Below, piece after piece: positions 14,384-64,000 of a DNA stretch of 64,000 nucleotides. The stretch's first letter is position 1, and every line of letters starts with the position of its first letter. The stretch is from the NCBI GenBank assembly GCA_016929115.1, contig JAFGJL010000010.1, positions 331-64,330 of the forward strand, read 5' to 3'. The notes under the pieces were generated by a model. That model was not told the origin of the DNA. It ran no database searches and was given only the letters and a program-made list of their open reading frames with translations. This DNA is from Candidatus Omnitrophota bacterium (lineage in GTDB: Bacteria > Omnitrophota > Gorgyraeia > 2-01-FULL-45-10). A program made the translations under genes and the position numbers.

Positions 14384-14850
14384 GCTTTATCGCCTGCTTT
14401 CGTATCAAAATCAAGGATTGTCCCGTCCAGGACAGAATAGACCGGGTTCAACAAAACGATATTTGAATTTATCTTGATCGGCGTATTGGCGCAATAATAC
14501 TCACCGTTCAATATGACGCATTTCGCCTTTATGAGGACGATCACGTCGCTGTATCCGGCCTCCTTGTCGCCATAGCCTTTAACGGGCTTTATCTCCAGCA
14601 CCTTCTTTATCCTGGCATTGCCGCCCATTATGGCCTCGTCGGGCCTGAAGATCTTCCTGTTATTGGCTACCTCGGTCGGCAGGCGGCACAATACTTTCAC
14701 GTAAAGCTCCCGGCTCAGCTTTTCGGTCTTTGCCCTGTCCGAGAAGTTGATCCTTACGGACATGGCGACCCCCGCGATCAGCAATATCACCAGAAGATCT
14801 ATGAGGTTTATTATACCGAATAATCTGCCCTTATTATCTACCAGCCGCAT
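14380..14850 (-). CDS. Hypothetical membrane-anchored protein (N-terminal TM helix, DUF4330-like)
   Basis: GIINLIDLLVILLIAGVAM N-terminal helix followed by a soluble domain of about 120 aa. This protein type often accompanies polysaccharide loci. Confidence 0.5.
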   Translation of the reverse strand: MRLVDNKGRLFGIINLIDLLVILLIAGVAMSVRINFSDRAKTEKLSRELYVKVLCRLPTEVANNRKIFRPDEAIMGGNARIKKVLEIKPVKGYGDKEAGYSDVIVLIKAKCVILNGEYYCANTPIKINSNIVLLNPVYSVLDGTILDFDTKAGDKA

Positions 14851-16093
14851 ACTCGCTCCTTTTTTTGAACAGGAACCGGTAAAGTTTAGATATACTGAAA
14901 CTGAAGAATATAAGCACCAGCGGCTCTACGAGCCATCTATGCCTCCCCTCCACATAAAAGAAACTCTGCATACAGCAGACGGCCATTAAGACGAATACGA
15001 TGAGCAGCGCCCCCTCCCTGGTCGCGTTATTCCCGGAGAAAACGGCGAGCAGAAGTCCCGCAACTGAAAGCGGCAGCATAACCGAATAGAGCCATTTATA
15101 AATGACAAGGTATAGCCTGGGATACAGATAACCGCTCTGGTCCGAAAACCACCAGAAGTAACGGATCTTTGTGAAATAAAGTCCGATAAAACGCGCCGGG
15201 TTGCGCCTTATAAAGGCGAAGGCCTCGTTCTCGAAGAACTTCTTCTGCCCCAACTCGTCCAGTGAACGGACCTTCTCCTGAAAACCGGCTGGCCACAGGC
15301 CCAGTATCGATCTTCCGTCCTTTGTCAGCGATGCCCCTGTCGCGAGCTCATTATTGCCGCGCCAGAAATTTTCCCCGGTGGTCGATACTATAAAAACGAA
15401 TTCTTTTTGGACCGTGTAATTCCGTATCAGCCATGGCGATATCACTATAAATGCCGCGAGCACCATAAAAGATGCCAGCTTAAGTTTCGTTTTGAAACTG
15501 GCGCTCTTAACGAACAGGAATAAGAACAGGAGCAGGAACGGCAACAGGGACCCGATCATCCCCCTGCTCAAGGTTCCCAACCCTATGATACCGCCGATAA
15601 GCAACGCCCTTAAGGCAGTAGGCCTGTCCTTAAAGCGCAGAAAAAGATAGGTGGCTGAGGCTATAAAGAACGAGTCGATGCTGAGCGGTATAAGGTTAAA
15701 AACATCGTAATACATATAGCCCGGGTGAAAAACGACGAGCGTTGCCGCGATTAACGCGACATCTTCATCGAACAGGGCCTTCGCGATATTGAATATAACG
15801 GCCGCAAGAGCCAGCGAAAAGAGCGCCTGCAGCAAAAGGACCGCCAGATAACTGTGGTTCGTCAGTAGATATATCCCCGCGCATAGATATGTATAGAGCG
15901 GGGTCGTCAAAGACCTGCATGAAGCCCCTAAGAAATTCCCGTACAGGAAGCCCTTGCCGGCCAGGATGTTATTGATTATCTCCTCAAATTCCCATTTCAC
16001 GGGATGGGCATACGTCTTAAAGGCGATTATCAGCGCTATCCTGATCAAAAATGCCGCAGCCAAAATTATGATAAGTTTCTTCTTCATGTCCAC
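14834..16093 (-). CDS. GT-C fold membrane glycosyltransferase, ArnT/PMT (GT39/GT83, COG1807)-like
   Basis: Polytopic protein of 419 aa. An acidic WEFEE loop follows TM1. The overall TM architecture is typical of polyprenyl-P-sugar-dependent GT-C enzymes. Confidence 0.6.
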   Translation of the reverse strand: MDMKKKLIIILAAAFLIRIALIIAFKTYAHPVKWEFEEIINNILAGKGFLYGNFLGASCRSLTTPLYTYLCAGIYLLTNHSYLAVLLLQALFSLALAAVIFNIAKALFDEDVALIAATLVVFHPGYMYYDVFNLIPLSIDSFFIASATYLFLRFKDRPTALRALLIGGIIGLGTLSRGMIGSLLPFLLLFLFLFVKSASFKTKLKLASFMVLAAFIVISPWLIRNYTVQKEFVFIVSTTGENFWRGNNELATGASLTKDGRSILGLWPAGFQEKVRSLDELGQKKFFENEAFAFIRRNPARFIGLYFTKIRYFWWFSDQSGYLYPRLYLVIYKWLYSVMLPLSVAGLLLAVFSGNNATREGALLIVFVLMAVCCMQSFFYVEGRHRWLVEPLVLIFFSFSISKLYRFLFKKRSEYAAGR

Positions 16094-17082
16094 TAGGAGA
16101 CCTTTACCCCTGTCCCTCTCCAGCTGTTCTTATTCCTGAAAGATATATTGATATCGCTTAGACCCGCCCTTTTAAACCAGCTCTCTATCTCATTCTTGCT
16201 TATATACTGGGTCTTGGCAGCTACCAGCTGATCGAAGACTATATTGAATATATAACGGAAATTAAAGGCCGCTATCGAATCAAGATAATCGTTCAGGGGG
16301 ATGAATCTTGTAACGGGTTTCGTGAAACGCATCTTGTTAAGCGGGTATATGATAAATCTGGACATTGTAAAAAGGAGCGCTGACGCCGGAAACGACAAAA
16401 CATAGAGTAGAAAACGCGGCATCCTGGATGTGATATGCAGCCTCACGGGATCGATGAACTTCCTCACTATGAAATTGCCCTCTTTCGCGTAAACCCAGAC
16501 CGAGATACGCCCGCCCTTCTTAAGCAGCTTCGTGAGCGATCTGAAACCTTCTTCCGGGTCAGGCAGGTGATGCAGCACCCCTATGCAATAGACGTAGTCA
16601 AAGACCTGCGATAGCGGGACGTTATATATATCGGCCTGCATCAAATGAACATTGCTGAATTCCCTCGTATTCTCATGCGCAACATCTATTGCCTTGCTCA
16701 GATCTAACCCCACCACCTCTTTTGCGCCGAACATTGCGGTCTGGTAGACATGGCGGCCGTTACCGCAACCGGCGTCGAGCACTACCTTATCCTTGAGATC
16801 ATTTGGCGAGACGGGCCATATCCAGCTGAGGAACTGCTGACGGTAAAAATCATAATATTCCGGGAAGGCCGTCCATGAATAACCGAAGCCCTCAGCGGTC
16901 TTCTTCTTCAGTTCCGACAGCTTGGGATCGAGGAATCTGGGTATGCCCGATACTACGGGATAGCTGCTGCGGCATTTCCCGCATATCAGCTCACCGTTTG
17001 CGGAATCTTGCCGATCCGCGCCTTCAAACGCGCTGCGGCATTTCGGGCACACTAGTATCTCACACAGATACTTATCTATCAT
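16093..17082 (-). CDS. Trm112-like zinc-ribbon fused to class I SAM-dependent methyltransferase
   Basis: LVCPKCRS...CGKCRSSYP (Cys4 ribbon) then VLDAGCGNGRH (SAM motif I). The start is set at the ATG at 17082, with a verified ATGA overlap. Confidence 0.75.
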   Translation of the reverse strand: MIDKYLCEILVCPKCRSAFEGADRQDSANGELICGKCRSSYPVVSGIPRFLDPKLSELKKKTAEGFGYSWTAFPEYYDFYRQQFLSWIWPVSPNDLKDKVVLDAGCGNGRHVYQTAMFGAKEVVGLDLSKAIDVAHENTREFSNVHLMQADIYNVPLSQVFDYVYCIGVLHHLPDPEEGFRSLTKLLKKGGRISVWVYAKEGNFIVRKFIDPVRLHITSRMPRFLLYVLSFPASALLFTMSRFIIYPLNKMRFTKPVTRFIPLNDYLDSIAAFNFRYIFNIVFDQLVAAKTQYISKNEIESWFKRAGLSDINISFRNKNSWRGTGVKVS

Positions 17083-17864
17083 TTTACGCTTTCCTTCTTC
17101 CTGGCAACGCACATCACCGCTACACCGAAAGGAAGTCGTGTCTTCTTTACGATCCTGGACTCGAAGTCCAGGATACTGACTAATATGGAGTTCAGGAATG
17201 GAGGCAGGCTCTCGACCCTCGTCCTCTCTACCTTGAGAAAAGGCCTAAGGAGACCGTATTGGACGAGTCTTATGGCCGCAACGAACGGAAATAGGAAGAA
17301 ATTCGCATAAGTCATCCTCGCCACTTCAAACCCCGCCTTCTCAAGCTTAACCTTCAGATCGCATGCCGTATAGCGCCTCTTATGAAAATTGGCTATATCA
17401 TGCTGGCTCCATAGAAAACCGAAAGCCGGCACCGCGATCACGAGGAATCCGCCTTTTGCCATCACCCTGTTCATCTCCTTAAGCGCGCCCAGATCATCTT
17501 CTATGTGCTCTATTATATCGAAAGCGTTCATCAACGAGAACGACCCGTCCTTGTACGGGATATTTTCTGCCGACGCCTGGTTTAGGCATACAGAAGATCT
17601 CTCTTTCGTAAACCTCAGCGCATCCATGGACAGGTCCAGACCGTACACCTTTGCGGCATAGTTCCTGAGGTGGAGCATCTTTCCACCCGCGCCGCATCCC
17701 AGGTCCAGCGCCCGGCCCGTCCGGTCAAAACCTTTAAGGGACACTTCGAGGAAAGCGGCCCATATATCGAACATGCCCTTGTAAAACCAGTTCGTGTCCT
17801 TGAGCTTAAAATCCCTTTCGAACTCTTCTTTCGGCAGGTTCGTCACTATGCCCGCTCTCAGCAA
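17079..17864 (-). CDS. Class I SAM-dependent methyltransferase
   Basis: ALDLGCGAGG (motif I) and MNAFDIIEHIED...MAKGGFLVI (Methyltransf_11-like). Confidence 0.75.
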   Translation of the reverse strand: MLRAGIVTNLPKEEFERDFKLKDTNWFYKGMFDIWAAFLEVSLKGFDRTGRALDLGCGAGGKMLHLRNYAAKVYGLDLSMDALRFTKERSSVCLNQASAENIPYKDGSFSLMNAFDIIEHIEDDLGALKEMNRVMAKGGFLVIAVPAFGFLWSQHDIANFHKRRYTACDLKVKLEKAGFEVARMTYANFFLFPFVAAIRLVQYGLLRPFLKVERTRVESLPPFLNSILVSILDFESRIVKKTRLPFGVAVMCVARKKESVK

Positions 17865-18808
17865 TTTACCTTCTCCTCCACCACGTAAATGGTCCTTCTG
17901 GTCGTTTCGTAATATATCCGCACGCTCAGTTCCGCGAGTAGGCCCATGAATATTATCTGGGTCCCCAGGATGAATGAGAATACGGATAAGAGCAAAAGCG
18001 GGTTCCTATGCACCCACAGCCCCAATATCACTTTCTGGGCAAGCGTTACGAACCCGCAGACCGTACCGACCGCTATCAGCAGCACCCCCCAACCGCCAAA
18101 AAAATACAACGGGCTCGTGGAGGAGTTGCCCAAAAGGAACTTTACGGTAATAAGATCGAATATAACTTTAAGCGTCCTATTGATGCCGTATTTGGACTTG
18201 CCCCACCTGCGTCCCCTGTGGTTCACCTCTATCTCCACTATCTTCCCGCCCATCCAATATACGTAAACAGGTATGAAGCGGTGCATCTCACCGTAAAGGT
18301 TCACATTCTTCAGGACGTCCCGCCTGTACATCTTGAGCGTGCACCCGTAATCATGCAACTTCAATCCGGTAAGCGCCGATATTATGCGGTTGGCTATCAT
18401 CGAGGGAAGGCGCCTGCTCAAAAAAGGCTCCTTCCTTTTCCTGCGCCATCCGTTGACAAGGTCATAACCTTCATCCATCTTCTTAAGGAGAAGGGCAGCG
18501 TCCCGCGGGTCGTTCTGCAGGTCCGCGTCCATCGTCATCACGTATTTGCCCTGGGCGTGGTCGATGCCGGCAGCAATGGCGGAGGTCTGCCCGAAATTCC
18601 TCCTTAAGAGGACCGCCTTCACCTTGCTATCCGCCTTGGCCAGGCCCCTTATCAGGTCCCTGCTCTTATCGATACTACCGTCATCGACGAATATGATCTC
18701 GTAAGGATTGTTTATCGCGGAAAAGACTTCCCGCAATTCATCGTAAAGCACGGGAATGTTCTGCTCTTCATTGTAGACCGGGATCACGACCGATATCATC
18801 TCGCTCAT
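17858..18808 (-). CDS. GT2 polyprenyl-phosphate sugar synthase (GtrB/ArnC/CsbB-like) with C-terminal TM helices
   Basis: ISVVIPVYNEEQNI...FVDDGSIDKS...TMDADLQNDP plus two C-terminal TM segments. The start is set at ATG 18808, with a verified ATGA overlap. Confidence 0.8.
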   Translation of the reverse strand: MSEMISVVIPVYNEEQNIPVLYDELREVFSAINNPYEIIFVDDGSIDKSRDLIRGLAKADSKVKAVLLRRNFGQTSAIAAGIDHAQGKYVMTMDADLQNDPRDAALLLKKMDEGYDLVNGWRRKRKEPFLSRRLPSMIANRIISALTGLKLHDYGCTLKMYRRDVLKNVNLYGEMHRFIPVYVYWMGGKIVEIEVNHRGRRWGKSKYGINRTLKVIFDLITVKFLLGNSSTSPLYFFGGWGVLLIAVGTVCGFVTLAQKVILGLWVHRNPLLLLSVFSFILGTQIIFMGLLAELSVRIYYETTRRTIYVVEEKVNC

Positions 18809-20673
18809 ATCCACCCCTTCCACCAATAATAGGCTATCCCTATATATTCATGCACTATGCCTTTTATCTGGCCGAAACTTATCTGCCGGTGAAAAAACGG
18901 GATATCCTCATGCGCGTAGAATGCGCTCCTGGGCACCGGCGTGTAGGCGATCTTCATGTCGCCGGCATACTTCTCAAAGACAAGGGATAAGCGCTTCATG
19001 TGGTAAGGCGAGCTTACAAGCAATGCGCTGCGCCACTTGTTCGCCAGCATAATCTCCCTGGTCTGTTCCACGTTCTGATAAGTATTCGCCGATTTGTCAT
19101 CCAGGATTATATCTTTTGCAGACACGCCAAGCGCTACGGCCAGGGCCTTCATCACAAGTGTCTCTTTGAACACATACGTATAACCGGAAGAGAACACGAT
19201 ATGGCCGGCGTAACCCTTTTTATAAAGTTCTACGGCATACTGGACCCTCTCCTCATACCCCTGCCCGGCCTTGCCTGATTCCCCCACCCCGCCTCCGAGC
19301 ACTACAATAGCGTCAGCCTTCTGCGGCTGATCGGCTATGGCAAGCGGCCCGGCCAGGAACCACATTAGAGGCGTATAGAACAAAAGCAGGTACAGCGCCA
19401 GCCCTGCTGAGAGGGCCTTCAAGGCCCCACGCCTTGTGTTCTTATATAACAGCAGGAACTTCTCCTGCCAGTTCGCGGAAGGGGCTTTCTTCTTCCTCTC
19501 GATGGCGCTTTCCATTAGAGCGCTCATGCGCTCTATGCGCTCGTTCCAACTGTTCTTTTTTGCGAGTTCCATTCTCTGCCCCGAGATCTTCCCGTGATCG
19601 CAAGCGAGCGCCTTTTCGACAAGCTTGACAAATTCTTCCCGCGTCCTGGCTATCGCCGTAAGACAGCTACCCTGCTCATTCATGGCCTCTACCTCGGGAA
19701 GGGCCGTGGAAACAACGGGCTTGCCCATTATATGGTATTCGTTCAGCTTGGATGGATAAACGGTTTCCGTGTAACCCGAGACAAGATAGGGTATTGTGCA
19801 GACATCGAACCCGTTTATATACGCCGGCAGCGTATTGAACTCCTTCTTTCCCAGCGCAAAGACGTTCGGCATAGCGTCTATCTGGGACGTATCGGTCTGT
19901 TTCGGCCCAACCAGCACTATGGACCATTCCGGATGGCTCGCGGCCATGTAGTGGATGAGGGTCATATCCACATGCTTGTGTATCCCCCCCACATAGCCGA
20001 TTATGGGCTTCTTTATCTCCTTCAATCCCTCCGCCTCGCCTTTTACGGGAGCGCTCAGGTAATCCTCGAATATCTTCGTATTGACACCGGGCGGAAAGAT
20101 GTGGACATTCGCGTTCAGCTTCCTGCACTTATCGGCGAGTACCTTTCCCTGGGCGAATATGATATCGCTCTTCTTTATCAATATCTCCTCTGTCTTCTTC
20201 AGCATTTTCGGGTTATCGGTCAATTCTTCAAAATCCGCCACGCAATCATAGACCAGGAGCTTCCTGTCAGACAGTTCATCTATGATCTCGAGCGCTATGG
20301 TGGTGGGCAGAAAAGTCCAGATGATAGGATCGTGGAACGACATAGCTTTTATCCAGCGCTTAAGCGGCTCTATCAGCAGCCGTTTATTGATCCAGCAGGC
20401 GAACCTTGAATAAGGAAAAGGCAATACGACCGGGGAATATATAAACAGGTTGCCCGATTCTTTCCTGAATCCCTTGATGCTCTTTAACCAGCTAACCACG
20501 CGCTTCTTTAAACGCATTATGTCCCTGAACCCGGGCTTGCGGACGCCTGTATTCTCTATGAAAAGTACCCTGTTGCCGTTCTTCGCAAAGGTCGACATTA
20601 TCTCCTGGTGGCTCTGCCAGACAAAGTCCCAGTCTATGGAGGATATGCATATTATGTTCTCGTTCTTACGCAT
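18805..20673 (-). CDS. Fusion protein: GT4-like glycosyltransferase (N) + DUF218 / YdcF-ElyC-SanA family domain (C)
   Basis: The GT-B region is GYVGGIHKHVDMT...GKPVVSTALPEV. The C-terminal region has ADAIVVLGGGV...SSGYT...NTYQNVEQT...LVSSPYHMKR, which is characteristic of DUF218. Length is 622 aa. Confidence 0.7.
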   Translation of the reverse strand: MRKNENIICISSIDWDFVWQSHQEIMSTFAKNGNRVLFIENTGVRKPGFRDIMRLKKRVVSWLKSIKGFRKESGNLFIYSPVVLPFPYSRFACWINKRLLIEPLKRWIKAMSFHDPIIWTFLPTTIALEIIDELSDRKLLVYDCVADFEELTDNPKMLKKTEEILIKKSDIIFAQGKVLADKCRKLNANVHIFPPGVNTKIFEDYLSAPVKGEAEGLKEIKKPIIGYVGGIHKHVDMTLIHYMAASHPEWSIVLVGPKQTDTSQIDAMPNVFALGKKEFNTLPAYINGFDVCTIPYLVSGYTETVYPSKLNEYHIMGKPVVSTALPEVEAMNEQGSCLTAIARTREEFVKLVEKALACDHGKISGQRMELAKKNSWNERIERMSALMESAIERKKKAPSANWQEKFLLLYKNTRRGALKALSAGLALYLLLFYTPLMWFLAGPLAIADQPQKADAIVVLGGGVGESGKAGQGYEERVQYAVELYKKGYAGHIVFSSGYTYVFKETLVMKALAVALGVSAKDIILDDKSANTYQNVEQTREIMLANKWRSALLVSSPYHMKRLSLVFEKYAGDMKIAYTPVPRSAFYAHEDIPFFHRQISFGQIKGIVHEYIGIAYYWWKGWI

Positions 20674-49994: not shown

Positions 49995-50032
49995 ATTATC
50001 CTCTATTTACTACTTTTAGAACGTTTTGAACG

Positions 50033-50061: not shown

Positions 50062-50084
50062 GGCAAAAATGGGGATGATCGGGA

Positions 50085-54548: not shown

Positions 54549-55849
54549 TGCTCCTCGGCCTTTTGGCCCTTCTTGGGGCGGCTTGTCTTCGCGAGCCCGT
54601 AGGCCGCGAATATTATATAGACAGGCACGATCATGTCCCTGTGTCTCAGGAGCGTCTCATAGTTGGCTTCCGAAAGCCCGAGAGCCGAAGTGAAGAACAA
54701 CCCGACGGTGATCAGGGCGAGCTTATCCGCCGTCATCTTTTTAAAGGAGAAGCACAATCCCGCTGCGGCAAAGACAACGACCAGATACCATGCGAGCATC
54801 TGCGGCAATATTACGAGCTGCTGGATCTTATTAAACGCAAGAGGCGACGGCCCGAATAAAAATACGCATACGCCCTTCAGATAAGCTATGATCATGTGAA
54901 AGGCGGATACGCCGTCCTGACAGATGCTCCTTCCCGTGGGTATATATGTATAATAACTTTCCGGCAACAGCTTGTATGTAAGGCCTCCGCGATAATTCAG
55001 GATCAAGTGATAATTCAGCATGAACGAGAGCTTTGTCCAGATAAAATCGAACAGCCGGCCGCTCGCCGGATAGAAAGCAAGGAGTGCCCCGGCGAAGGTA
55101 AGCGCCACCCGCCTGTAAGAGAACGCGAACCTGATAAAAAGGTATGCGGCCAGGAAGCCCGCCAGGACGAGCATGGCATTTACCCTCAGCTCAGCGAGCA
55201 GCCATAAAGCGATAGCGGTCACGGCCATAGCTATCAACGGCCCCCTCGCATCATCGGTCTTCTTTATGAACAATACCTGGGATATGACCAGCATGACCAG
55301 CAGGTTTATCAGGGTATCGCGCTGGATACTGGCTGAATAAATAATAAAGGATGGCATGAAGAGCGCTATAGCAAGGGAGATCCGCCCTGTCCGTTCGTCA
55401 AAAGCGCGCCTTGCCACATTATATGTCAAAAACGCCGTAAGAACGCTTGCGCCGCTTATGAAGAATCTTAAAAGGACCGGCGCATACCCGAATACATAAT
55501 AAAATCCTCCTATTATGTATGAAAAGAGGGTTACGCCGTATTCCCTTATAGAAGGCAGTAGGCCGCAGTAATTCACCGGCGTCCCTAAAAGCCCGCCTAT
55601 CAGCGAATAATCGTTGGGGATGCATTGCGCGGGCAGCGCCAAAGTATTGAACCCTTTCAGCACGAGCGCTATGTACCACCCCATTATCGAATACGCCTCT
55701 CCGTCGAACGCGTATATGGGCCTTTTGAGGCCGGCGATGAAGACGTGATAATACGCTGCGCCGATGCAGAACCTTACGATGAGCGCAAGCATAGCGATCT
55801 TGACGCAAAATACGGCCGGTTTCTCCTCGTTAAAAAATTTATTGATCAT
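54545..55849 (-). CDS. Polytopic membrane protein, GT-C-like putative glycosyltransferase/polymerase
   Basis: 434 aa with about 10 or more TM helices and no soluble domain. The context is GT-C/YfhO neighbours. Confidence 0.45.
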   Translation of the reverse strand: MINKFFNEEKPAVFCVKIAMLALIVRFCIGAAYYHVFIAGLKRPIYAFDGEAYSIMGWYIALVLKGFNTLALPAQCIPNDYSLIGGLLGTPVNYCGLLPSIREYGVTLFSYIIGGFYYVFGYAPVLLRFFISGASVLTAFLTYNVARRAFDERTGRISLAIALFMPSFIIYSASIQRDTLINLLVMLVISQVLFIKKTDDARGPLIAMAVTAIALWLLAELRVNAMLVLAGFLAAYLFIRFAFSYRRVALTFAGALLAFYPASGRLFDFIWTKLSFMLNYHLILNYRGGLTYKLLPESYYTYIPTGRSICQDGVSAFHMIIAYLKGVCVFLFGPSPLAFNKIQQLVILPQMLAWYLVVVFAAAGLCFSFKKMTADKLALITVGLFFTSALGLSEANYETLLRHRDMIVPVYIIFAAYGLAKTSRPKKGQKAEEQ

Positions 55850-58353
55850 CGAAGCGGCCTCGCAGCAAAAATGCGCCTGAGCGAAACGGCGAGCATGAGA
55901 GCCATAAGAGCCGCGCAGATGTAGAGCAGCTCGTAAAGGCCTTTCGGCTTAAATATAAAACGCACCCGCTTGTCCCCTGCCCTGACCTGGACGGCCCTGA
56001 ACGCGTAATCCGCCTTAAGGACAGGCCTCTCTTTGCCGTCGACGAACGCCCTCCAGCCAGGAAAATACGTGTCGGAAAGTACCAGGACGCCCTCTTCATC
56101 CCCTTCCGTCTCCACTACAACCTCGTTCGGGCCGTAACTCAAGATGTCCGGATACGATATCCCGGATCCCGCCACCTTTTCCAGCGCAACTCCATGGACG
56201 CGCTCGACGACCGCCTCTCTGGCCGGGTCGAAGGAATCCTCGCGGATCATGCCGTAAGCGGCTTCGCTGTCGGGAGCGACGCGGACGTTGCCGGTAATGA
56301 ACGCGCGCGGCATGGCGCCCGCGTTCCCGTATATCTTTACCTCTTTATCGTATACGAGCTCCCACCTATCGGCCGTTATCTCCTTTTCCGAGACCAGGTA
56401 TTTGACGTTCAGGAACGGCAGGAACTTGCTGTTGTAGTCATTAAAGCGCTCTATGACGATCTCGTCCGGCTCATCGCCCATGATGAACCGGTAATACCAG
56501 CGGGCCTGGCCCAGGTTCTCGTATCCGCGCACATCGTAGAGGCCATAAGGCATGGCGGTGTTCGGCGGATACATGTCCCCGCGCGGCGAGCTTGTCCTCT
56601 CGGAAAAACCTACGATCCTGAACAGGCCGCGGTCTGCGCTGAGGAAACGGGCCGCGTTAGTTACGGGATAGGCGTTCGACGCGCGCGAATACGCCGGAAA
56701 GACGAGGCCGTGCATGAGAAGATCGACCGCAAGCACGATGACGACAACCCCGGTGAAGACGGCCTTGCGCTTCGACACCGCAAGAGCCGCTATCGCGAGG
56801 AATGAGACGAGCGCCAGGCCGAGCGGCACGCGCGCCTCATCGGACGCAAGCAATGAGCCGTAAGCGGATCGCAGCGTCGCCAGATACTGTGTAAAGGCGC
56901 TGAGGCTCTTCAGGCTGTGCGTCCCGTCAAAAAGCGCGCCGGGAAGCGCCTTCTCGGCGGCGGCAAGGAATGATTTAGCCGATACCATATTGACGCGCGA
57001 TAAAATCTCAAGGCAGCCGAATAGAGAGATGAGGAGCGCGAGCGCGATCACCGCTATCTTGACGAATTTTTTTCCGTCATCCCGTAAAAGCCCGTCGCAT
57101 CCCCAGCCAGCCATGACAGCCACCGAAAAGGCGTAGAGCGTCGTGAGCCGGTAATGGTCCACGGACTGGAAATAAGGCATTAATTTTATGACCGGCTTGT
57201 AGACGAACGGCAATGCGAATGACATGAGCGCGATGAGTATCCCGCCGGAAAAGAAGAGATAAAAAAACCTGTCGTGTCTTTTGCGCGCTAAAAAACCCAC
57301 CGCCGCGAGAAAGAGAGTGATGATGCCGACATACGGCGGGCTGAGGCGCATGAAGCCCCTGTTAAAAATATACGTGCCGAACCCGAGGTCCCAGCCGTCG
57401 TACTGTATGCCGTAAAAGAACGGCGAGATATACGAGATGAGCATCTGCGGATAGAGCAGGCTCAGGCCGTAACGGCCGGCTGTCCGCGTGGAATTCGCGA
57501 TATTGATCTTCTGGACGATAAGCTCCGGCAATGCGTATAATACCGCTACCGTTATGATGATGAGCGCGATCGTGGCGTAACGGCCCGATCCTTTTCTATC
57601 TGAAACCGCGGACTGGATAGAACGAAAAACAAGATAGACAAGCGCCATTGCCGAGGCGTAGACGGCAAGTTGTATCTGGCCGGACCAGAAAAAAAGGGCG
57701 AATGATAAGCCGCACCAGAAGGCGGCCGATACGCTTTTCCGCGCAAGCGCCTTTTCTATCAAAAGAAGCGCGAGAGGCAGCCATGAAAAGACGCCCAGGT
57801 AGCTTAAGGTCTGGAACTGTATTACAAATGTCATGTTGAGCATATAGGCGAGCGCCGCCACCAGAGCGCCCGGCCTTCCGGAGCCGATCTGCCGGCTGTA
57901 AAAATACATACCGATACCGGCAACCGCGAACTGGCACATCAAAAATATCCCCCAAGCCTTGACGAAGCTGAAAAGAAAGAAGACGATGTTGAGCGGGTTT
58001 AACGGCGTGGCGAAGTTATTCCCCCATAACGGCGTCCCACACATGATGTAAGGGTTCCATAGCGGCATGATACCCTGCTTCATGAACTGGATAGTGACAA
58101 ATTTAATGGGATACATGTAGAGCACAGGGTCTGTGTCATTATTGAAAGGAGCGGCCGACGCCGCATGGGCTATCCCCTTCCACGGATAGAAGTTATCGAC
58201 GAGCCAGTCGGCGTTGAGCGGCACCATCCCGAGGAACACGAATTTGTAAAAGAATATGGCAAGGGCGGCGAGCAGTATGCCTATCATCAATATATCTTTA
58301 GCCCTTGGACTTAAAAGAATATCTTTGCGATCTTCCATATCCCCTGGTCCCAC
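55846..58353 (-). CDS. YfhO-family (GT-C fold) membrane glycosyltransferase-like protein
   Basis: 835 aa. There is a large N-terminal polytopic domain followed by a C-terminal extracytoplasmic domain of about 250 aa. The architecture and length match YfhO-type proteins that pair with CsbB/GtrB-like GT2. Confidence 0.55.
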   Translation of the reverse strand: MGPGDMEDRKDILLSPRAKDILMIGILLAALAIFFYKFVFLGMVPLNADWLVDNFYPWKGIAHAASAAPFNNDTDPVLYMYPIKFVTIQFMKQGIMPLWNPYIMCGTPLWGNNFATPLNPLNIVFFLFSFVKAWGIFLMCQFAVAGIGMYFYSRQIGSGRPGALVAALAYMLNMTFVIQFQTLSYLGVFSWLPLALLLIEKALARKSVSAAFWCGLSFALFFWSGQIQLAVYASAMALVYLVFRSIQSAVSDRKGSGRYATIALIIITVAVLYALPELIVQKINIANSTRTAGRYGLSLLYPQMLISYISPFFYGIQYDGWDLGFGTYIFNRGFMRLSPPYVGIITLFLAAVGFLARKRHDRFFYLFFSGGILIALMSFALPFVYKPVIKLMPYFQSVDHYRLTTLYAFSVAVMAGWGCDGLLRDDGKKFVKIAVIALALLISLFGCLEILSRVNMVSAKSFLAAAEKALPGALFDGTHSLKSLSAFTQYLATLRSAYGSLLASDEARVPLGLALVSFLAIAALAVSKRKAVFTGVVVIVLAVDLLMHGLVFPAYSRASNAYPVTNAARFLSADRGLFRIVGFSERTSSPRGDMYPPNTAMPYGLYDVRGYENLGQARWYYRFIMGDEPDEIVIERFNDYNSKFLPFLNVKYLVSEKEITADRWELVYDKEVKIYGNAGAMPRAFITGNVRVAPDSEAAYGMIREDSFDPAREAVVERVHGVALEKVAGSGISYPDILSYGPNEVVVETEGDEEGVLVLSDTYFPGWRAFVDGKERPVLKADYAFRAVQVRAGDKRVRFIFKPKGLYELLYICAALMALMLAVSLRRIFAARPLR

Positions 58354-59354
58354 GGCACGCGATGCGATACTCCCTTTGCCTTGCCGAATTTATTTTTATT
58401 ATCGAGATACCATCTGTAATTACGTATGAGCGCATCCTTGTTGGAGTATTTAGGCTTGAATCCTAATACTTTTTCCGCTTTCTCCATGGAGACAAAGGAC
58501 TCGACGTATGCGGTCCCGTAATTCCACTTATAGACCGGAGAAAGTTTCAGATAATGCAACAGCTCAAGAGCCAACAGCGCCGGCTTGACCGGGAAAGATA
58601 CTATCTTCTTGCCGTGCCCGGCGTAATCAAGGACCGCCTGAAAATCCTCGCGGATGGTCCTGAATTCTTTAGCGCCGAGATTGAACGTATCATTAACGGC
58701 ATCCGCATCCTTCGTCATGCAGGCGTATATCGCCTCCGACAGGTCGTAGACGTCCATTAGCTGGAAGAGATTATCGCCTTTTCCCACTATCGGGAAGTTC
58801 TTCCCGGAATCCGCCCAGTCATAAAGGAGCGCGAATATCCCGAGCCTCTCAGGACCTATGAACGACTTCGGCCTTAGGATGGGGACGCACATCCCCTTCT
58901 TCCTGTATTCCCTGCAAAGGCCCTCGGCCATGATCTTCGCCCTGCCGTAGTCGCCGACCTCTTCCCCGCCGAGCGGGTCGGTCTCGTAGATGGGGTGTTT
59001 CTTGGGGATGCCGTAAACGGCTGTCGTGGATATATGGATGAATCTCCGGACCTTATGCCTTAACGCCGCGTCAAGGACGGTGCGCGTGCCTTCGACGTCT
59101 ATGGAATATATGTCTTCCTTCTTGTAGAGCGGCAGCGCAGCTGCCGTATGGACGACCATGTCGATGCCCTCCATGGTTTTATCCATGAGCGCGGCATCCC
59201 TTATGTCGCATTTGATCGCCCTCACCCAGCCTCTTTCAGGGTAATCAAATTCAGCGATATCGACGCATACAATATCCCCGATCCCCTTCTCCATAAGAAG
59301 CCGGATCAGGTTGATCCCCAAAAATCCTGCTCCGCCTGTGACCAGCACCCTCAT
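58311..59354 (-). CDS. NAD-dependent nucleotide-sugar epimerase/dehydratase (extended SDR)
   Basis: MRVLVTGGAGFLGINL and YGRAK (YxxxK). Length is 347 aa. A GGGGGAGG SD lies 7 nt upstream. Confidence 0.8.
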   Translation of the reverse strand: MRVLVTGGAGFLGINLIRLLMEKGIGDIVCVDIAEFDYPERGWVRAIKCDIRDAALMDKTMEGIDMVVHTAAALPLYKKEDIYSIDVEGTRTVLDAALRHKVRRFIHISTTAVYGIPKKHPIYETDPLGGEEVGDYGRAKIMAEGLCREYRKKGMCVPILRPKSFIGPERLGIFALLYDWADSGKNFPIVGKGDNLFQLMDVYDLSEAIYACMTKDADAVNDTFNLGAKEFRTIREDFQAVLDYAGHGKKIVSFPVKPALLALELLHYLKLSPVYKWNYGTAYVESFVSMEKAEKVLGFKPKYSNKDALIRNYRWYLDNKNKFGKAKGVSHRVPWDQGIWKIAKIFF

Positions 59355-59418: not shown

Positions 59419-60189
59419 CTAATCATAATATCCGCTCAGCTTGGCCCTGAAATCATGGATCGTATCGTAGCCGTCAACCTCTGTCCTGCGCAATAGATAC
59501 GGATCGACCGACACGCCGTTCAGGCCCTTGATTGTGGAGCAGCCGCCTGTATACCCGGCCTTCTTTACCAAACTAACGATCCTGCCGTTCAGCTTCCCGT
59601 AAGGATAACTTATGGTCTTCGGATCGATACCGGTCTTGCTCAAGATCTCGTCTTTCGACCCTTTGAGCTGCGCGAGCGCCGCCTCATCATCAAGATCCGA
59701 CAGCGCTATGTGGTCGATCATGTGGGAGCCTATCTCGAATCCCATGCGGCCAAGCCGCGCGACGTCGTCCCAGTCCATGTAAACACGCCTGCTGCCGTCG
59801 GTCCAGGCATTGCGGCTCTTGCCGTCTATATATGATGTTGTGACAAAAAATGTGGCCTTCATGCCCCTGGCTGCGATCGCAGCCGCGACTTCGGTGACAT
59901 TATCCTTATATCCGTCATCAAAGGTCAAAGCTATATCTCTGGTCCTGTCCGCCGCGGCTCCGCCCTTGATGATATCAGAGACGGTCTTTGTGAAATACCC
60001 CCGGGCCGCGATCTCATCAAGTTGCCGCCTGAAATTTTCCGGAGGCACCCTGATGGCAAGTCGATGGTCTGCCGGGTTGCCGATCGAATGGTACATAAGG
60101 ATCCTTACCCCATCCGTTTTCCCGCGAAACGGCAAAAGGGACATGACATACGCCCTGATACGATGTATATTTTTCCGCACCATAAACAC
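59419..60189 (-). CDS. Polysaccharide deacetylase (CE4/NodB homology domain)
   Basis: LTFDDGYKDN (NodB motif 1), GSHMIDH (His motif) and RVYMDWDD. Confidence 0.8.
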   Translation of the reverse strand: MFMVRKNIHRIRAYVMSLLPFRGKTDGVRILMYHSIGNPADHRLAIRVPPENFRRQLDEIAARGYFTKTVSDIIKGGAAADRTRDIALTFDDGYKDNVTEVAAAIAARGMKATFFVTTSYIDGKSRNAWTDGSRRVYMDWDDVARLGRMGFEIGSHMIDHIALSDLDDEAALAQLKGSKDEILSKTGIDPKTISYPYGKLNGRIVSLVKKAGYTGGCSTIKGLNGVSVDPYLLRRTEVDGYDTIHDFRAKLSGYYD

Positions 60190-60192
60190 ACC

Positions 60193-61629
60193 TTAAGCCG
60201 CGAAACGTTTTTTAAATATCATCTTCAGCATGCGAAGCGCCGTCTTCGAGACCTTGAGATAGTTTTGGGAATGCTTTGAGACGCCGGTCGCGCGCTTGTA
60301 ATAAGATATCGGTATCTCGACGATGCGCTTGCGCGCGCGCAGCACCTCTATCATCATCTCCGGCGAGAACTCCGGCCCTGTGCCGGAAAGCCGGTCGCGT
60401 ATCTTCATGTACGTATCGCGCCATATCGCGCGGTACGTGCAGCCGACGTCGGTGAAGCGCGGCTCCTGGCCCCACCAGAGCGCCTCGACGAGCTTGCCGA
60501 CCGCGACGTTGCCCCACCGCAAGGCCCCCTTCATGTTCGCGCCCTGCTCTATCATCTGCCGCGTCGTGCGCGTGCCGATGACCATGTCCGAATCCTTCAG
60601 GTACTCCAGGAACTTGCCGAGGTCCTTGGCGCGGAACGAATGGTCCGCTTCTACGACAATAAGGATGTCGCCCTTCGCGTGGTCAAGGCCGTATTTTATC
60701 GTGTCGCCGTAGCCCTTCAACTTCACCGTCTCGACGCGCGCGCCCGCCTGCTCGGCGACGCGCCTCGTCCTGTCAGCGGATGAATTGTCGACGACAAAGA
60801 CCTCGTCGACCTTGCCTGCGAAGTCCTTCACCACGCAACCTATCGACTCCTCCTCGTTGTAGGCCGGTATGACGACGCTCGTCTTGAAGGAGCTGAAGAA
60901 CGTCGAGCGGTACATGTAATTGGCGTAGTTGTAGTCCTCGACCGAATTGATGTTGTGGTACTCGCCTTCAAGGAAGATGCCGCGCACGGCTTTACCTTCC
61001 CTGACGAGCGTATTGATGGCGTCGGTCAGCTCGACCCTGCCGGACTTTTTCGACGGTTTGGTGCGCTCTATCGCGCCGAATATCTCGGGCGTAAAGATGT
61101 AGGTGCCGATGCCGAGGACCGGGCCATCCGCCTTATTCGGCTTCTCTTCGAGCGAGGCCACCCTGTCGCCCTTGAGTTTCACGGTGTAGTTCTTCGCTAT
61201 CATCTTGAAGTCGTCGGACCTCAACAGGCAGCATGCGGCGGCGAGACCGCCCATGTCCATACCCTTCAGGATAGCGTGGTTCGAATTTATATACACTTCG
61301 TCGCCCAGGATCGTGACGAAATCCTCTTTTATCCTGTCCTTGGCGAGCAATATACCCTTCGCGAGGCCGCTCGCATGGTCATCGCAGTCTATATATTGTA
61401 TCTTGACCCCGAACCGCGATCCGTCCTTCAGGAAAGACTTTATCGTATCGCCCATGTAGCCGGTTATGGCCCAGATATCCTTTATGCCGAGCCTGTCCCT
61501 CATTATCTCGATATTGCGCAGGATGACGGGTTTGCCCGCTATCTCGAGCATCACCTTCGGGATATAGGTAGTCGCCGGATAGGCTCGGACGCCCGCGCCC
61601 GCGGCCGGTATAAGAGCTTTCGTTATCAT
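60193..61629 (-). CDS. Bifunctional fusion: sugar-1-phosphate nucleotidylyltransferase (N) + GT2 polyprenyl-phosphate/DPM-synthase-like glycosyltransferase (C)
   Basis: The N-terminus has KALIPAAGAGVRAYP...PKVMLEIAGKPV (NTP_transferase). The C-terminus has SVVIPAYNEEESI...VVDNSSADRT...VEADHS (GT2). Length is 478 aa. Confidence 0.75.
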   Translation of the reverse strand: MITKALIPAAGAGVRAYPATTYIPKVMLEIAGKPVILRNIEIMRDRLGIKDIWAITGYMGDTIKSFLKDGSRFGVKIQYIDCDDHASGLAKGILLAKDRIKEDFVTILGDEVYINSNHAILKGMDMGGLAAACCLLRSDDFKMIAKNYTVKLKGDRVASLEEKPNKADGPVLGIGTYIFTPEIFGAIERTKPSKKSGRVELTDAINTLVREGKAVRGIFLEGEYHNINSVEDYNYANYMYRSTFFSSFKTSVVIPAYNEEESIGCVVKDFAGKVDEVFVVDNSSADRTRRVAEQAGARVETVKLKGYGDTIKYGLDHAKGDILIVVEADHSFRAKDLGKFLEYLKDSDMVIGTRTTRQMIEQGANMKGALRWGNVAVGKLVEALWWGQEPRFTDVGCTYRAIWRDTYMKIRDRLSGTGPEFSPEMMIEVLRARKRIVEIPISYYKRATGVSKHSQNYLKVSKTALRMLKMIFKKRFAA

Positions 61630-63363
61630 CTATCCACCCACTTTTATGACTGAAAAATAGCGGTCCTCGTAGGCCGTCTTGAAGCCGGCGCCAAGCAGAT
61701 CCTTGATAACATCGTCATCCCTGCCCTTGACCGCCACCACATAATCCACCTTGTACTTCTTCGCGAGCCTCAAGCCGTCCTCGGACAGCATCATTTTATA
61801 CCGCGAGACCAGCGCCTTGCGCTCGGTCTCCATGAACTCCCTGGTCCTGTTCGAGTCGCCGGTGAGGAATATCGCGCCGTCCCATGAATACGGATGGCTG
61901 ACGGCCTCGTCGAGCGTCAGGCCAAAAAGCCTGTAAGCGGCGAGCATCCTGTAACGCGTCTCACCTGCCGATATGAGAGAGAGGCAGAAGAACGGTTCAG
62001 AATAGTAGACATAGCTCTTGGTGTAGATCGGGATGAGCTCTGACAACCGGATATCATTGGGTGACGGCAGTATTACGTCGCCGGGTAACGCGTTGGCGTT
62101 CAACCAGCGGAAAGCCCCGGCCATCTGCTGCAGCTTCAGGTTGTCGTTAAAGTGGTGGCGGTGGTAATTCAGCTGCATTCCGATGCCGTGAACGAGAAGC
62201 GCCGAGAAGAACAGGGCGGGCAGTGCGACCTGGAGCCAGGCCAGGCGCGTTCTCCTGGCTGCGAGGACTTTGGCAAGCGCGGCGACCGACAGGATGACCG
62301 TGATTATGAGCACGAACTTGCCGGTATAGGCGGTCCAGTGGCTCTCTTTGAAAAGTCTTCCGGTCAGTACCTGCTGATTTACCAGCAGGATGACCGCCGC
62401 GAGCATCGCTGCCAGAAACTGGAAGGTCCTCTTCCCCGATACGGCGACGATGGCCCTGCGCGCCAGTAAAAGAAAAGCAAGCGCTGCCACGGTCGCGACC
62501 GGCAAGACCGGCTTGTGCGTGTAAGCGACGTTAAAACGCAGGAGCAGGAGTCCATAGTTCGGGTCCCGCATAGTCTGGATATTCATCATCCAGTACGGTA
62601 CCGACACGATAGCCCCGATCACGGCAATGGCGAACGCCTTCCTGAAAGCGGAAAGATCCTTCTGCGCCAGGAAAACGATGCACAGGACGCCGATAGTCGC
62701 ATATATGTGCATCCAGTAGAACACGCTTACGTAGAAAAGCGAGCCGAGAAAGATCCCGGCAAGCCAGACAAATGTTTTTCTGCCATCATTGAGCGCCTTG
62801 TACAGGAAGATGAGCGCCAGCGTAAAGAATACAAAGTGCATCTGCGGCGTTATCGGCCTGGCGAACCATAGCGGCAGATGGTATCCCGTATTAATGAGCT
62901 TGCCGCCAAAAATGAATATTTTGGAGGCGAGGTGCATGCCGAAGAGCACGCCTGCCGCCATCGCGATCGAACACCACTTCACGCCCGATATTTCATACGA
63001 GAACACGAATACGAGGATAAAGATCAGCGCCGGCATCAGGAAAGTCCATAACATATCAAGCTGCGCCACTGAAAGGACGAGGGCCTTGCCTATAAGCGCC
63101 TCGATAGACTCGCAGATAGTCGGCATGATGACCGGATCGTTGCGGTGTTCGTATATGGCCGGATTGCGGGCCAGAAAGTCACCCCTGTAGATCGCGTTGA
63201 TCCGGCCCAGATAGACCGTCTCGTCGCGGAAACCGATCGGCACTATGCCCTTATACCTGTTGCCGGCCTCTTGCACAAACCGGAGGTCCGGGTAGATATA
63301 TATCAACCCGGCGAAGACCGCCAAGACGAACACTAGCGCTAAGGTTTTTTTCTTTGTATCCAT
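61630..63363 (-). CDS. Polytopic membrane protein with C-terminal soluble domain (GT-C/YfhO-like architecture), function unknown
   Basis: 577 aa. There are about 12 predicted hydrophobic helices and then a hydrophilic tail of about 150 aa. Confidence 0.45.
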   Translation of the reverse strand: MDTKKKTLALVFVLAVFAGLIYIYPDLRFVQEAGNRYKGIVPIGFRDETVYLGRINAIYRGDFLARNPAIYEHRNDPVIMPTICESIEALIGKALVLSVAQLDMLWTFLMPALIFILVFVFSYEISGVKWCSIAMAAGVLFGMHLASKIFIFGGKLINTGYHLPLWFARPITPQMHFVFFTLALIFLYKALNDGRKTFVWLAGIFLGSLFYVSVFYWMHIYATIGVLCIVFLAQKDLSAFRKAFAIAVIGAIVSVPYWMMNIQTMRDPNYGLLLLRFNVAYTHKPVLPVATVAALAFLLLARRAIVAVSGKRTFQFLAAMLAAVILLVNQQVLTGRLFKESHWTAYTGKFVLIITVILSVAALAKVLAARRTRLAWLQVALPALFFSALLVHGIGMQLNYHRHHFNDNLKLQQMAGAFRWLNANALPGDVILPSPNDIRLSELIPIYTKSYVYYSEPFFCLSLISAGETRYRMLAAYRLFGLTLDEAVSHPYSWDGAIFLTGDSNRTREFMETERKALVSRYKMMLSEDGLRLAKKYKVDYVVAVKGRDDDVIKDLLGAGFKTAYEDRYFSVIKVGG

Positions 63364-63364
63364 A

Positions 63365-64000
63365 TTATAATTTCCGGTATCTCTGCACGGTAAGGTCGCC
63401 GAATTTTTTCGAATCGACCGGCGTGTACCGCCCGTTCAGAAAGGAGTTGAACCGCTCGTGGCAGCGGCGTGATTCGAGCTTCTCCGGATAGGAGATAAAG
63501 ACGATCTCTCTGTCGGCTATGCGCCGGACATCCGGGTCTTCGAGCTGGTGCAGGTTGGGCATATCGTAGAAATAATACTTGAACGAACCGCCGAACGACG
63601 GCGATACTATCGCGGTCTCGCGTGTCGCGACCGCCTTGGCATAAGCATGCGCGCCTTTCAGGTCCATCTCCTTGTCCGCGTAAAGGAAGACCAGGCGGCT
63701 TAAGAATACCGCCGACACTGCCGCGAGAAGCAGATATTGCGCCTTCTCGGAAAGTACGGCGCGGCATGCTGCCACCAGGAAGAGAACGAGAAAGACGAAA
63801 CTTGCGATGAAATAATGGCTCATCAGCACTATCTTTACGGCCTGGTGCAGGAATATAGCTATGGCAAAAGGGACTGCCGCAAGGATCAGGAAGAAATAGG
63901 CGTATTTGCGCTCATCCCGCGTAAACTTAGGGCTGCGGATGTATTTGGCAGCTAGCAATGTCGCGGCGAGGGAGGATATAAGCATGCCGGCGAGGGAGGC
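63365..64000 (-). CDS. Membrane protein, C-terminal part (5' end lies beyond the window edge)
   Basis: The ORF runs in frame to the window edge. There are hydrophobic helices then a soluble C-terminus. It is likely another GT-C-type protein. Confidence 0.45.
   Translation of the reverse strand, partial: ASLAGMLISSLAATLLAAKYIRSPKFTRDERKYAYFFLILAAVPFAIAIFLHQAVKIVLMSHYFIASFVFLVLFLVAACRAVLSEKAQYLLLAAVSAVFLSRLVFLYADKEMDLKGAHAYAKAVATRETAIVSPSFGGSFKYYFYDMPNLHQLEDPDVRRIADREIVFISYPEKLESRRCHERFNSFLNGRYTPVDSKKFGDLTVQRYRKL

Follow-up and report, generated by a model that had tools for sequence, protein, structure and literature searches.

Sugar addition outside the cytoplasm by glycosyltransferases (GTs) of the GT-C superfamily drives serotype and phage-receptor diversity, and the known GT-C systems mostly consist of one synthase with one transferase. 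How, then, should a single locus with five GT-C-like proteins be read, as one glycosylation system or as several, and acting on what? The locus belongs to a metagenome-assembled genome (MAG) of Candidatus Omnitrophota, a phylum of ultra-small, possibly host-dependent bacteria. The stretch analysed, called the window here, comprises the 64,000 nucleotides at positions 331 to 64,330 of contig JAFGJL010000010.1 (assembly GCA_016929115.1). A preliminary description had assigned to it five polytopic GT-C-like proteins and three polyprenyl-phosphate sugar synthases of family GT2, and had proposed extensive decoration of exported polymers or a novel polymerisation route. We find that the five proteins make up at least two separate extracytoplasmic glycosylation units, and we think it probable, with moderate confidence, that both pass a sugar from a lipid phosphate to a periplasmic GT-C enzyme, the donors most likely being polyprenyl-phosphate sugars. 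This reading is built on the family and fold of the parts, on conserved acidic motifs and on synteny, from which we infer donor, acceptor, topology, order of steps and flipping.

The window holds about 56 tightly packed genes in a single array, every one on the minus strand, with a largest intergenic gap of 163 nt. A Pfam scan of all open reading frames (ORFs) of at least 100 residues places nearly all of the genes in sugar-modifying or glycan-assembly families; the window as a whole forms a single cell-surface glycan island with its genes all running in one direction. All five polytopic ORFs are present as described, with 7, 9, 11, 9 and at least 4 transmembrane (TM) segments (Table 1), the last figure referring to 63365-64000, an ORF cut by the window end. 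TM segments were counted with a Kyte-Doolittle hydropathy window, and sidedness was assigned by the positive-inside rule. The truncated gene is complete on a Logan contig (L001) that is identical to window positions 61630-64000 across 2371 bases and adds 2.4 kb beyond the window end. There it encodes 484 residues with about 10 TM segments and carries a precomputed PMT_2 (PF13231) annotation, so the counts for the five full-length proteins lie within the range of about 7 to 13 seen in the GT-C superfamily.

Family and fold assignments agree with the topology. The 419-residue protein, described as ArnT/PMT-like, scores 55.3 bits with Pfam PMT_2, where the cut-off is 26.1, and the YfhO-like protein matches Pfam YfhO (PF09586) in two stretches at 70.7 bits against 28.5; its orthologs in other Omnitrophota are annotated YfhO too. 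The three further polytopic proteins are also GT-Cs, those of 434 and 484 residues through Pfam PMT_2 (32.4 bits for the former, with a gathering threshold of 26.1) and that of 577 residues through its fold. All five have the GT-C fold; the figures listed for GT-C structures in the fold comparison were STT3B 19.5, AftA 19.3, Pmt4 18.6, Pmt2 17.6, AglB 16.1, ArnT 15.6 and PglB 14.5. The alternative, that these are transporters or unrelated membrane proteins, was looked for, and the evidence of fold and family together yields GT-C enzymes instead. No match among PDB sequences was found for the 419-residue or YfhO protein, nor by a profile of the 434-residue family. Recent paralogy among the five was rejected: pairwise BLAST gives no similarity, except for a marginal match between the 419- and 434-residue proteins (E 2e-4). 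With five unrelated enzymes, it is quite possible that not all of them act on the same acceptor.

Table 1. Genes discussed in the text, in window order. The last column gives amino acid identity to the window protein across contigs L002-L004 from other Omnitrophota.
Feature	Position	Strand	Properties	Identity, L002-L004
Third DPM1/PpgS/AglJ-type GT2	25..723	-	232 aa, no TM; NCBIfam AglJ 115 bits, PpgS 77 bits; DAD at 90	
Wzy_C O-antigen ligase/polymerase-type polytopic protein	9545..11161	-	Pfam Wzy_C 79.5 bits	
WecA-like initiating transferase	10822-11850	-	adjoins Wzy_C gene	
PMT_2/ArnT-like GT-C	14834..16093	-	419 aa, at least 7 TM; partner of ArnC-like GT2 in small unit	
Class I S-adenosylmethionine (SAM) methyltransferase with N-terminal Trm112p-like zinc ribbon	16093..17112	-	Pfam Methyltransf_31/11/25, Trm112p; between GT2 and GT-C	
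Class I SAM methyltransferase, DVU_1556-like	17079..17864	-	Pfam, NCBIfam; 33%-identical homolog in Desulfobacterales L006	
ArnC/GtrB-type polyprenyl-phosphate glycosyltransferase	17858..18826	-	322 aa; GT2, DAD at residue 100, TM 242-260 and 278-296	
GT4::DUF218 fusion	18805-20673	-	TuaH-like GT4 and membrane-anchored DUF218 (ElyC-like); first gene after small unit's putative promoter	
MsbA/PglK-type ABC exporter	26507..28303	-	Pfam ABC_membrane and ABC_tran	
Transglutaminase-like protein	50085-50831	-	N-terminal TM helix; last gene of four-GT-C unit	
Double GT4 (GT-B) Leloir glycosyltransferase	52272..54548	-	758 aa; Pfam Glyco_trans_1_4, Glycos_transf_1, Glyco_transf_4; directly downstream of GT-C block	
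PMT_2 GT-C	54545..55849	-	434 aa, about 9 TM; last GT-C of conserved block	47-63%
YfhO-family GT-C	55846..58353	-	835 aa, about 11 TM; large extracytoplasmic domain ahead of last TM helix	51-59%
Extended short-chain dehydrogenase/reductase (SDR), NAD-dependent epimerase/dehydratase	58311..59354	-	347 aa; Pfam Epimerase 133.7 bits	75-88%
Carbohydrate esterase family 4 (CE4) polysaccharide deacetylase	59419..60189	-	Pfam Polysacc_deac_1 95.6 bits	
Nucleotidyltransferase::GT2 fusion	60193..61629	-	478 aa, no TM; NTP_transferase residues 4-234, GT2 residues 251-455 (Pfam NTP_transferase and Glycos_transf_2)	78-81%
Unannotated-family GT-C	61630..63363	-	577 aa, about 9-11 TM and C-terminal alpha/beta extracytoplasmic domain	50-54%
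PMT_2 GT-C, C-terminal 211 of 484 aa	63365..64000	-	gene runs past window end	42-46%

The division into units follows from the distance between them, from the genes that intervene and from consensus promoters at the unit boundaries. The small unit (unit 1), at about 20.7-14.4 kb, contains one pair, the ArnC-like synthase and the ArnT-like GT-C, parted by just two SAM methyltransferase genes. The second (unit 2) runs from beyond 64 kb to about 50.1 kb and contains the other four GT-Cs, the fusion enzyme, the SDR epimerase and the CE4 deacetylase, followed by the double GT4, a B12-radical SAM enzyme and the transglutaminase-like protein. The two units are some 30 kb apart, and the space between them is taken up by genes of nonulosonic-acid type, by numerous radical SAM enzymes and methyltransferases, and by an ABC exporter; counted from the pair at 14.8-18.8 kb to the four GT-Cs at 54.5-64+ kb, the separation is about 38 kb. 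A sequence that agrees with the sigma-70 consensus at 12 of 12 positions fills the 90-nt gap at 49995-50084, directly after the gene set of unit 2, and another, agreeing at 11 of 12, is found at 20875-20847, immediately upstream of the largest gap and near the small unit.

The 577-residue protein (JW919_00840 at NCBI, 100% identity) has no sequence match in Pfam, NCBIfam or PDB, whether by phmmer or by a 14-sequence profile against PDB sequences. It does not match PMT_2 in Pfam, and its profile shows no similarity to that of the 434-residue family (hhalign probability 0.4%); the family is tied to GT-C by fold only. An exhaustive profile search returned 2239 cluster representatives at E<=1e-3 and 745 at E<=1e-30, and nearly all of the best 150 matches listed are full length. 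This is a widespread, new, unannotated GT-C family with no Pfam or NCBIfam model. Scans of sequence collections for further loci gave one new locus and a duplicate of L002 from genomes, and one 1-kb fragment from metagenomes. In three distant loci, one from a Desulfobacterales MAG (L006) and two from unclassified bacteria (L007 and L008), a small GT2 gene is adjacent to the family member or within about 3 kb. The best match of each of these GT2 proteins is to the DPM-type GT2 proteins of the window, and one has C-terminal TM helices; the neighborhoods usually hold an epimerase and methyltransferases as well. Because of these DPM-type neighbors in distant loci, lipid-phosphate-monosaccharide donors are favored for the family over the lipid-diphosphate-oligosaccharide use typical of an oligosaccharyltransferase (OST). 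The 577-residue protein was also considered as a candidate OST of the STT3/AglB/PglB kind, in which case its Y-S-W-D-G stretch might stand in the place of the WWDYG motif that OSTs carry in the C-terminal extracytoplasmic domain.

Each of the five GT-Cs begins with a short basic N-terminus, then TM1, then an acidic motif, which by the positive-inside rule should face the periplasm. The conserved acidic loop expected after TM1 is borne out for four of the five. In the 577-residue family it reads G-F-x-D-E-T, with E48 invariant and D47 retained in at least 90% of 14 sequences; in the 434-residue family it reads F-D-G-E, with D49, G50 and E51 invariant across 14 sequences. The 484-residue protein has K-S-F-Q-G-D-E and H-P-P-L-Y-F-Y after TM1, kept in three orthologs, and the YfhO protein has NNDTDPVLYMYP, containing a DxD motif (N-N-D-T-D-P-V-L-Y-M-Y-P), likewise kept in three orthologs.

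Nine window proteins carry GT2 domains, of which exactly three belong to the subgroup of DPM1, ArnC, AglJ and PpgS: the ArnC-like synthase, the C-terminal half of the fusion enzyme, and the product of 25-723. The count of three polyprenyl-phosphate synthases given earlier is thus right for the window; only two lie within the range 14834-64000 to which it was applied, and the third falls 14 kb outside. These three catalytic domains align with one another along their entire length at 28-29% identity (BLAST), and each is a GT-A domain with a DxD-type motif and whole-domain homology to solved polyprenyl-phosphate GT2 enzymes. Six other GT2 genes, at 2-7 kb, were considered as donor synthases and set aside; they match the DPM-type domains over the N-terminal 80-110 or so residues only. 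The ArnC-like synthase has the canonical architecture. It aligns end to end with solved ArnC (9hwj, E 4e-56) and GtrB (5eke, E 8e-36), reaches 225 bits with the NCBIfam ArnC model, under its equivalog cut-off of 529, and is the only one of the three with a C-terminal membrane anchor, its two TM helices falling within the one to four expected of this type. The other two depart from that architecture in having no TM helix. TM-less PpgS and human DPM1 exist, so a missing TM helix lowers, and does not exclude, membership in the DPM type.

The fusion enzyme joins an N-terminal sugar-1-phosphate nucleotidyltransferase of the RmlA/GalU type to its GT2 domain. For the GT2 half, the best NCBIfam models are AglJ (102 bits) and Dol-P-hexose transferase (65 bits), the only solved GT2 structures matched are Pyrococcus DPMS (5mlz, E 6.5e-12, residues 242-453) and ArnC, and an EAD motif lies at 327. 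On the strength of these domains, the protein is predicted to make a nucleoside diphosphate (NDP)-sugar and hand its sugar to polyprenyl phosphate. More than 1274 homologs, 59-84% identical, occur in Aminicenantales, Cyanobacteriota, Planctomycetota, Spirochaetota, Acidobacteriota, Myxococcales, Xanthobacteraceae and other lineages. The SDR epimerase, whose best NCBIfam match is HpnA-like at 101 bits, under the cut-off, and whose other matches are generic to extended SDRs, adjoins the fusion enzyme in Aminicenantales and Xanthobacteraceae loci too and is its conserved partner. In a Xanthobacteraceae MAG the fusion gene adjoins an unannotated 12-TM protein, the epimerase, a PMT gene, and genes for heptose synthesis and heptosyltransferases of the lipopolysaccharide (LPS) core; in another genome (L009) it adjoins an unannotated 8-TM protein. 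Neither the 12-TM nor the 8-TM neighbor matches the hidden Markov model of the 577-residue family. Neither the nucleotidyltransferase::GT2 fusion nor GT-C systems of Omnitrophota turned up in searches of the literature. The fusion is widespread, highly conserved, new and apparently uncharacterised.

A different arrangement is seen on an Aminicenantales contig (L012), where a 119-residue ORF at 9642-10001 is what remains of the C-terminal end of a 577-family gene and immediately precedes a fusion copy 78% identical to that of the window. Its neighbors are a methyltransferase fragment, a 347-residue epimerase after the fusion, and a phage-integrase fragment, an arrangement that suggests that part of the block was transferred horizontally and then decayed.

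Unit 2 recurs in other Omnitrophota. Homologs of the 577-residue protein occur on a contig from a DeMMO Omnitrophota MAG (L002) and on the near-identical L003 and L004. All three share one gene order: deacetylase, methyltransferase, PMT_2 (483-484 aa), 577-residue family, fusion, epimerase (347 aa), YfhO and PMT_2 (431-432 aa), after which come a B12-radical SAM gene and a GT4 gene. The GT4 genes at or near this place in L002 and L004 are 61-64% identical to the double GT4 of the window, which could elongate a lipid-linked intermediate. A second deacetylase gene lies upstream in L001 and L002; the window deacetylase is possibly an analog of ArnD, NaxD or LgmC, acting on a lipid-linked N-acetylhexosamine (HexNAc) or on the glycan. 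Across the three contigs the donor-side enzymes are much better conserved than the GT-Cs (Table 1), a difference which suggests that the donor has stayed constant while the specificities of transfer diverged. The grouping of four unrelated GT-Cs with a single donor-synthesis set, conserved in Omnitrophota, is new.

With these parts, unit 1 may work as follows. The ArnC/GtrB-type synthase would load a sugar from an NDP-sugar onto polyprenyl phosphate at the cytoplasmic face, the two methyltransferases may tailor the lipid-linked sugar, and after flipping the ArnT-like protein would move it to an exported acceptor. In unit 2, the fusion enzyme would make the NDP-sugar and pass its sugar to polyprenyl phosphate, the epimerase and one or more CE4 deacetylases would modify the donor, and the four unrelated GT-Cs (484 aa, 577 aa, YfhO and 434 aa) would use the donor or donors at the periplasmic face, each probably making a different linkage or serving a different acceptor site. 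Use of a polyprenyl-phosphate-linked donor on the extracytoplasmic face by the three PMT_2 proteins, the 577-residue protein and YfhO is proposed from synteny with DPM/ArnC-type GT2 genes in the window, in L002-L004, in L006-L008 and in a further locus, L011. The main glycan of the island appears to be assembled on undecaprenyl diphosphate (Und-PP), given the WecA-like and Wzy_C genes. The acceptor would most likely be such an Und-PP-assembled glycan (WecA-like, GT2, GT4 and Wzy_C genes), either an LPS O-antigen/core or a capsule-like polymer. Protein O-glycosylation (as by PMT or Pgf/PgtC2) and addition of aminosugars to lipid A or core (as by Arn, Lgm or Flm) would be equally compatible acceptor scenarios.

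The closest precedents for such units are the three-component periplasmic systems GtrA/GtrB/GtrC for O-antigen, CsbB/GtcA/YfhO for teichoic acids, and PPPRS/MATE/GT136 of Citrobacter youngae (PMC11127046), the last of which also provides a precedent for auxiliary epimerases that diversify the donor (PMC11127046). As in these systems, a GtrB/ArnC-type GT2 with C-terminal TM helices lies near a GT-C in unit 1, and a GT-C of the YfhO family is present. In contrast to them, the window has no dedicated flippase for a lipid-phosphate sugar, unit 2 has four GT-Cs for one donor set, the synthase there lacks TM helices and is joined to a nucleotidyltransferase, and methyltransferases and deacetylases are interleaved.

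Several observations weigh against our reading. No GtrA, SMR, MATE or Wzx protein is found by Pfam among window ORFs of at least 100 residues, and no gap exceeds 163 nt. The MsbA/PglK-type ABC exporter is the only candidate flippase for lipid-linked glycans in the window, though a flippase gene may lie in another part of the genome. Of the three DPM-type GT2 proteins, two have no TM helix and score far under every NCBIfam equivalog cut-off, so a non-lipid acceptor is possible for the fusion enzyme and for 25-723. The stretch E-F-E-E after TM1 of the 419-residue protein is known from a single sequence. The PMT_2 assignment of the 484-residue protein is a precomputed annotation, and its sole NCBIfam match is a weak one to the flippase activity-associated Agl23 (41.5 bits against 126). 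The TM topologies come from a simple hydropathy scan with the positive-inside rule. The promoters are matches to a consensus only, and their total number is not enriched over shuffled sequence.

Of the other explanations, the one that survives best is that the four-GT-C block is a pathway for periplasmic polymerisation and ligation rather than side-chain decoration, which we consider possible, if unlikely. In one variant, the fusion enzyme would begin glycan synthesis on polyprenyl monophosphate, the adjacent double GT4 may lengthen the chain in the cytoplasm, and the GT-Cs would polymerise the product and join it to a second polymer, as has been proposed for lactococcal WpsH and WpsJ. In the lactococcal Wps and streptococcal GacI/J/K/L systems, a GT2 starts the glycan on undecaprenyl monophosphate and cytoplasmic Leloir GTs can extend it (PMC10821137). 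Those clusters likewise have several GT-Cs, serving as polymerase, ligase or side-chain transferase. They differ in that they make rhamnan in Gram-positive bacteria and include a Wzx-type flippase and a small activator protein (GacJ/WpsB), neither of which is seen here, and in having no detectable sequence relationship to the 577-residue family. In the other variant, a homopolymer would be built sugar by sugar from one lipid-phosphate-monosaccharide, as by mycobacterial Emb, Aft and Mpt enzymes. Mycobacterial and corynebacterial arabinan and mannan assembly, which combines Ppm1 or decaprenylphosphoryl-arabinose (DPA) synthesis with EmbA/B/C, AftA-D, MptA-C and PimE (PMC3485146), also directs many different GT-Cs to one polyprenyl-phosphate-monosaccharide donor. 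AftA, AftB, AftD and PimE are structural matches, and Ppm1 and PpgS have TM-less DPM-type GT2 domains, as do two of the three synthases here. That system belongs to another phylum and another envelope, however, and the window has no genes for a phosphoribosyl pyrophosphate (PRPP)-based donor and no homology to it at the sequence level; its donor would come from the nucleotidyltransferase::GT2 fusion.

Polymerisation by the block is disfavored by the lack of a chain-length regulator and of a flippase, and the island already has a conventional Und-PP route in its WecA-like and Wzy_C proteins. In other phyla, the pair of fusion enzyme and epimerase occurs with only one or two polytopic partners, which fits simple decoration, and a GT-C fold cannot tell a polymerase from a single-sugar transferase. 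The strongest form of the idea, which we rate as rather unlikely, would make the block a self-sufficient pathway that builds a polymer outside the cytoplasm, in a diderm lineage that does not belong to the actinobacteria. A glycan would be assembled or ligated from polyprenyl-monophosphate-linked sugars by the fusion enzyme, which would channel sugar-1-phosphate straight into the lipid-linked donor, together with the SDR epimerase, the deacetylase or deacetylases, and four unrelated GT-Cs that include a family with an OST-like C-terminal domain. It would have its counterparts in mycobacterial arabinan/mannan or lactococcal PSP assembly by analogy, with a separate evolutionary origin. Post-export decoration or polymerisation from lipid-linked monosaccharides, as first proposed, stays plausible with DPM/ArnC-type GT2 synthases present, now spread over two units and with no flippase in the window; the claim that polymerisation would be a route novel in principle does not hold, as GT-C polymerases or ligases already have a place in the lactococcal Wps model and in mycobacterial arabinan and mannan synthesis.

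Some or all of the GT-Cs might instead be protein O-glycosyltransferases that act on Ser/Thr-rich regions of periplasmic, outer-membrane or surface proteins, a distinctly unlikely reading for which actinobacterial and eukaryotic PMTs are precedents. A further parallel comes from operons that combine a GT-A synthase, an epimerase and YfhO-type GT-Cs with a DxD-type motif in an extracytoplasmic loop, as here: Pgf of Streptococcus mutans (PgfS GT-A, PgfE epimerase, YfhO-type PgfM1/PgfM2), which like GtrB/PgtC2 of Streptococcus pyogenes serves protein O-glycosylation (PMC12041528). Our locus differs in its additional PMT_2 and 577-family GT-Cs and in its Gram-negative polysaccharide context, with surrounding genes of polysaccharide or LPS type. 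No adhesin or Ser/Thr-rich acceptor gene lies near it, and no acceptor protein, S-layer, pilin or flagellin gene is found in the window or in related loci. Furthermore, PMT_2 also covers transferases for lipid A and polysaccharides, and the aspartate of a W-D-G stretch in the 577-residue family is not kept in a distant member (P0014).

It is quite improbable that one or more of the units is an aminosugar system for lipid A or LPS core. Arn (ArnC/ArnD/ArnT), Bordetella Lgm and Francisella Flm/NaxD are pathways of this kind for lipid A. A GT2 would make undecaprenyl-phosphate-HexNAc or a formylated aminosugar, a CE4 enzyme would unmask the amine while the sugar is on its lipid carrier, and a small ArnT-like GT-C would add the cationic sugar to phosphates of lipid A or core. 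The triad of GT2 synthase, CE4 deacetylase/deformylase (Polysacc_deac_1) and PMT_2-type GT-C is indeed present, with the second deacetylase upstream, and ArnC is the closest characterised and solved relative of the ArnC-like synthase. The PMT_2 proteins are short (419-484 aa), those of 419 and 434 residues leaving little room for a soluble domain by hydropathy, and the Xanthobacteraceae fusion, epimerase and PMT genes stand beside LPS-core heptose genes. On the other hand, the ArnC-like synthase falls well short of equivalog status (225 bits, at least 529 being required), and its neighbors are methyltransferases and a GT4::DUF218 fusion. The locus deacetylase lies in the other unit, unit 1 having methyltransferases in its place; neither unit has an ArnA, ArnB or ArnE/F set; and four GT-Cs far exceed what lipid A modification needs. 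Finally, that the polytopic proteins are transporters, Agl23-like flippase-associated factors or inactive scaffolds of GT-C fold is very improbable in view of their fold and families, even with the Agl23 match (41.5 bits, under the cut-off) of the 484-residue protein and a window otherwise devoid of a flippase.

The locus is not categorically new: every part is of a known kind, multi-GT-C clusters are known in lactococci and mycobacteria, and the underlying principle of extracytoplasmic GT-C glycosylation is already established. If characterised, the 577-residue family (more than 2000 cluster representatives), the fusion enzyme and the four-GT-C block would extend the catalog of GT-C families and of donor synthesis, and the widespread fusion would couple NDP-sugar synthesis to lipid-phosphate-sugar synthesis.

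Other genes of the island provide further context. Class I SAM methyltransferases occur beside pairs of DPM-type GT2 and GT-C in every lineage examined (the window, L001 at 668-1300, L006, L007, L008 and L011), a gene similar to the window's Trm112p-methyltransferase adjoining the 577-family GT-C in L007; their substrate may be either the lipid-linked sugar or the product. A Transglut_core protein is also encoded near the fusion enzyme in the unrelated genome L009 (13515-15515), which may be coincidence. Glycan genes of the island also include GT9 and many Leloir GTs. Among the radical SAM genes, six are B12-binding (799-2238, 7133-8464, 28297-29835, 34769-36163, 36160-37746 and 50848-52284) and two are of SPASM type (24435-25415 and 39974-41320), unusually many for one island to devote to radical (C-)methylation or some other radical chemistry on sugars.

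Between the units, two NeuB paralogs and three CMP-sugar-type cytidylyltransferases, one fused to a methyltransferase, occur with aminotransferases, a formyltransferase and a HAD phosphatase (31958-32839, 38450-39307, 39313-39987, 41320-42663 and 46993-47796), and the set looks like one or two nonulosonic-acid pathways. A MarR-like helix-turn-helix gene in mid-array (42671-43222) is 59% identical to a MarR-like gene of L002 (20811-21305) that closes the block of that DeMMO contig, just ahead of a porin gene. The layout suggests that a conserved frame received the nonulosonic-acid segment of about 43-50 kb as an insertion, or that this segment varies within the frame. Two pairs of ORFs overlap at length, by 307 nt (2196-3272 and 2966-3742) and by 340 nt (9545-11161 and 10822-11850). 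In 2196-3272 the GT2 domain begins at residue 108, and in the Wzy_C protein the first TM segment begins at residue 135; the long overlaps suggest that the listed start codons are too far upstream.

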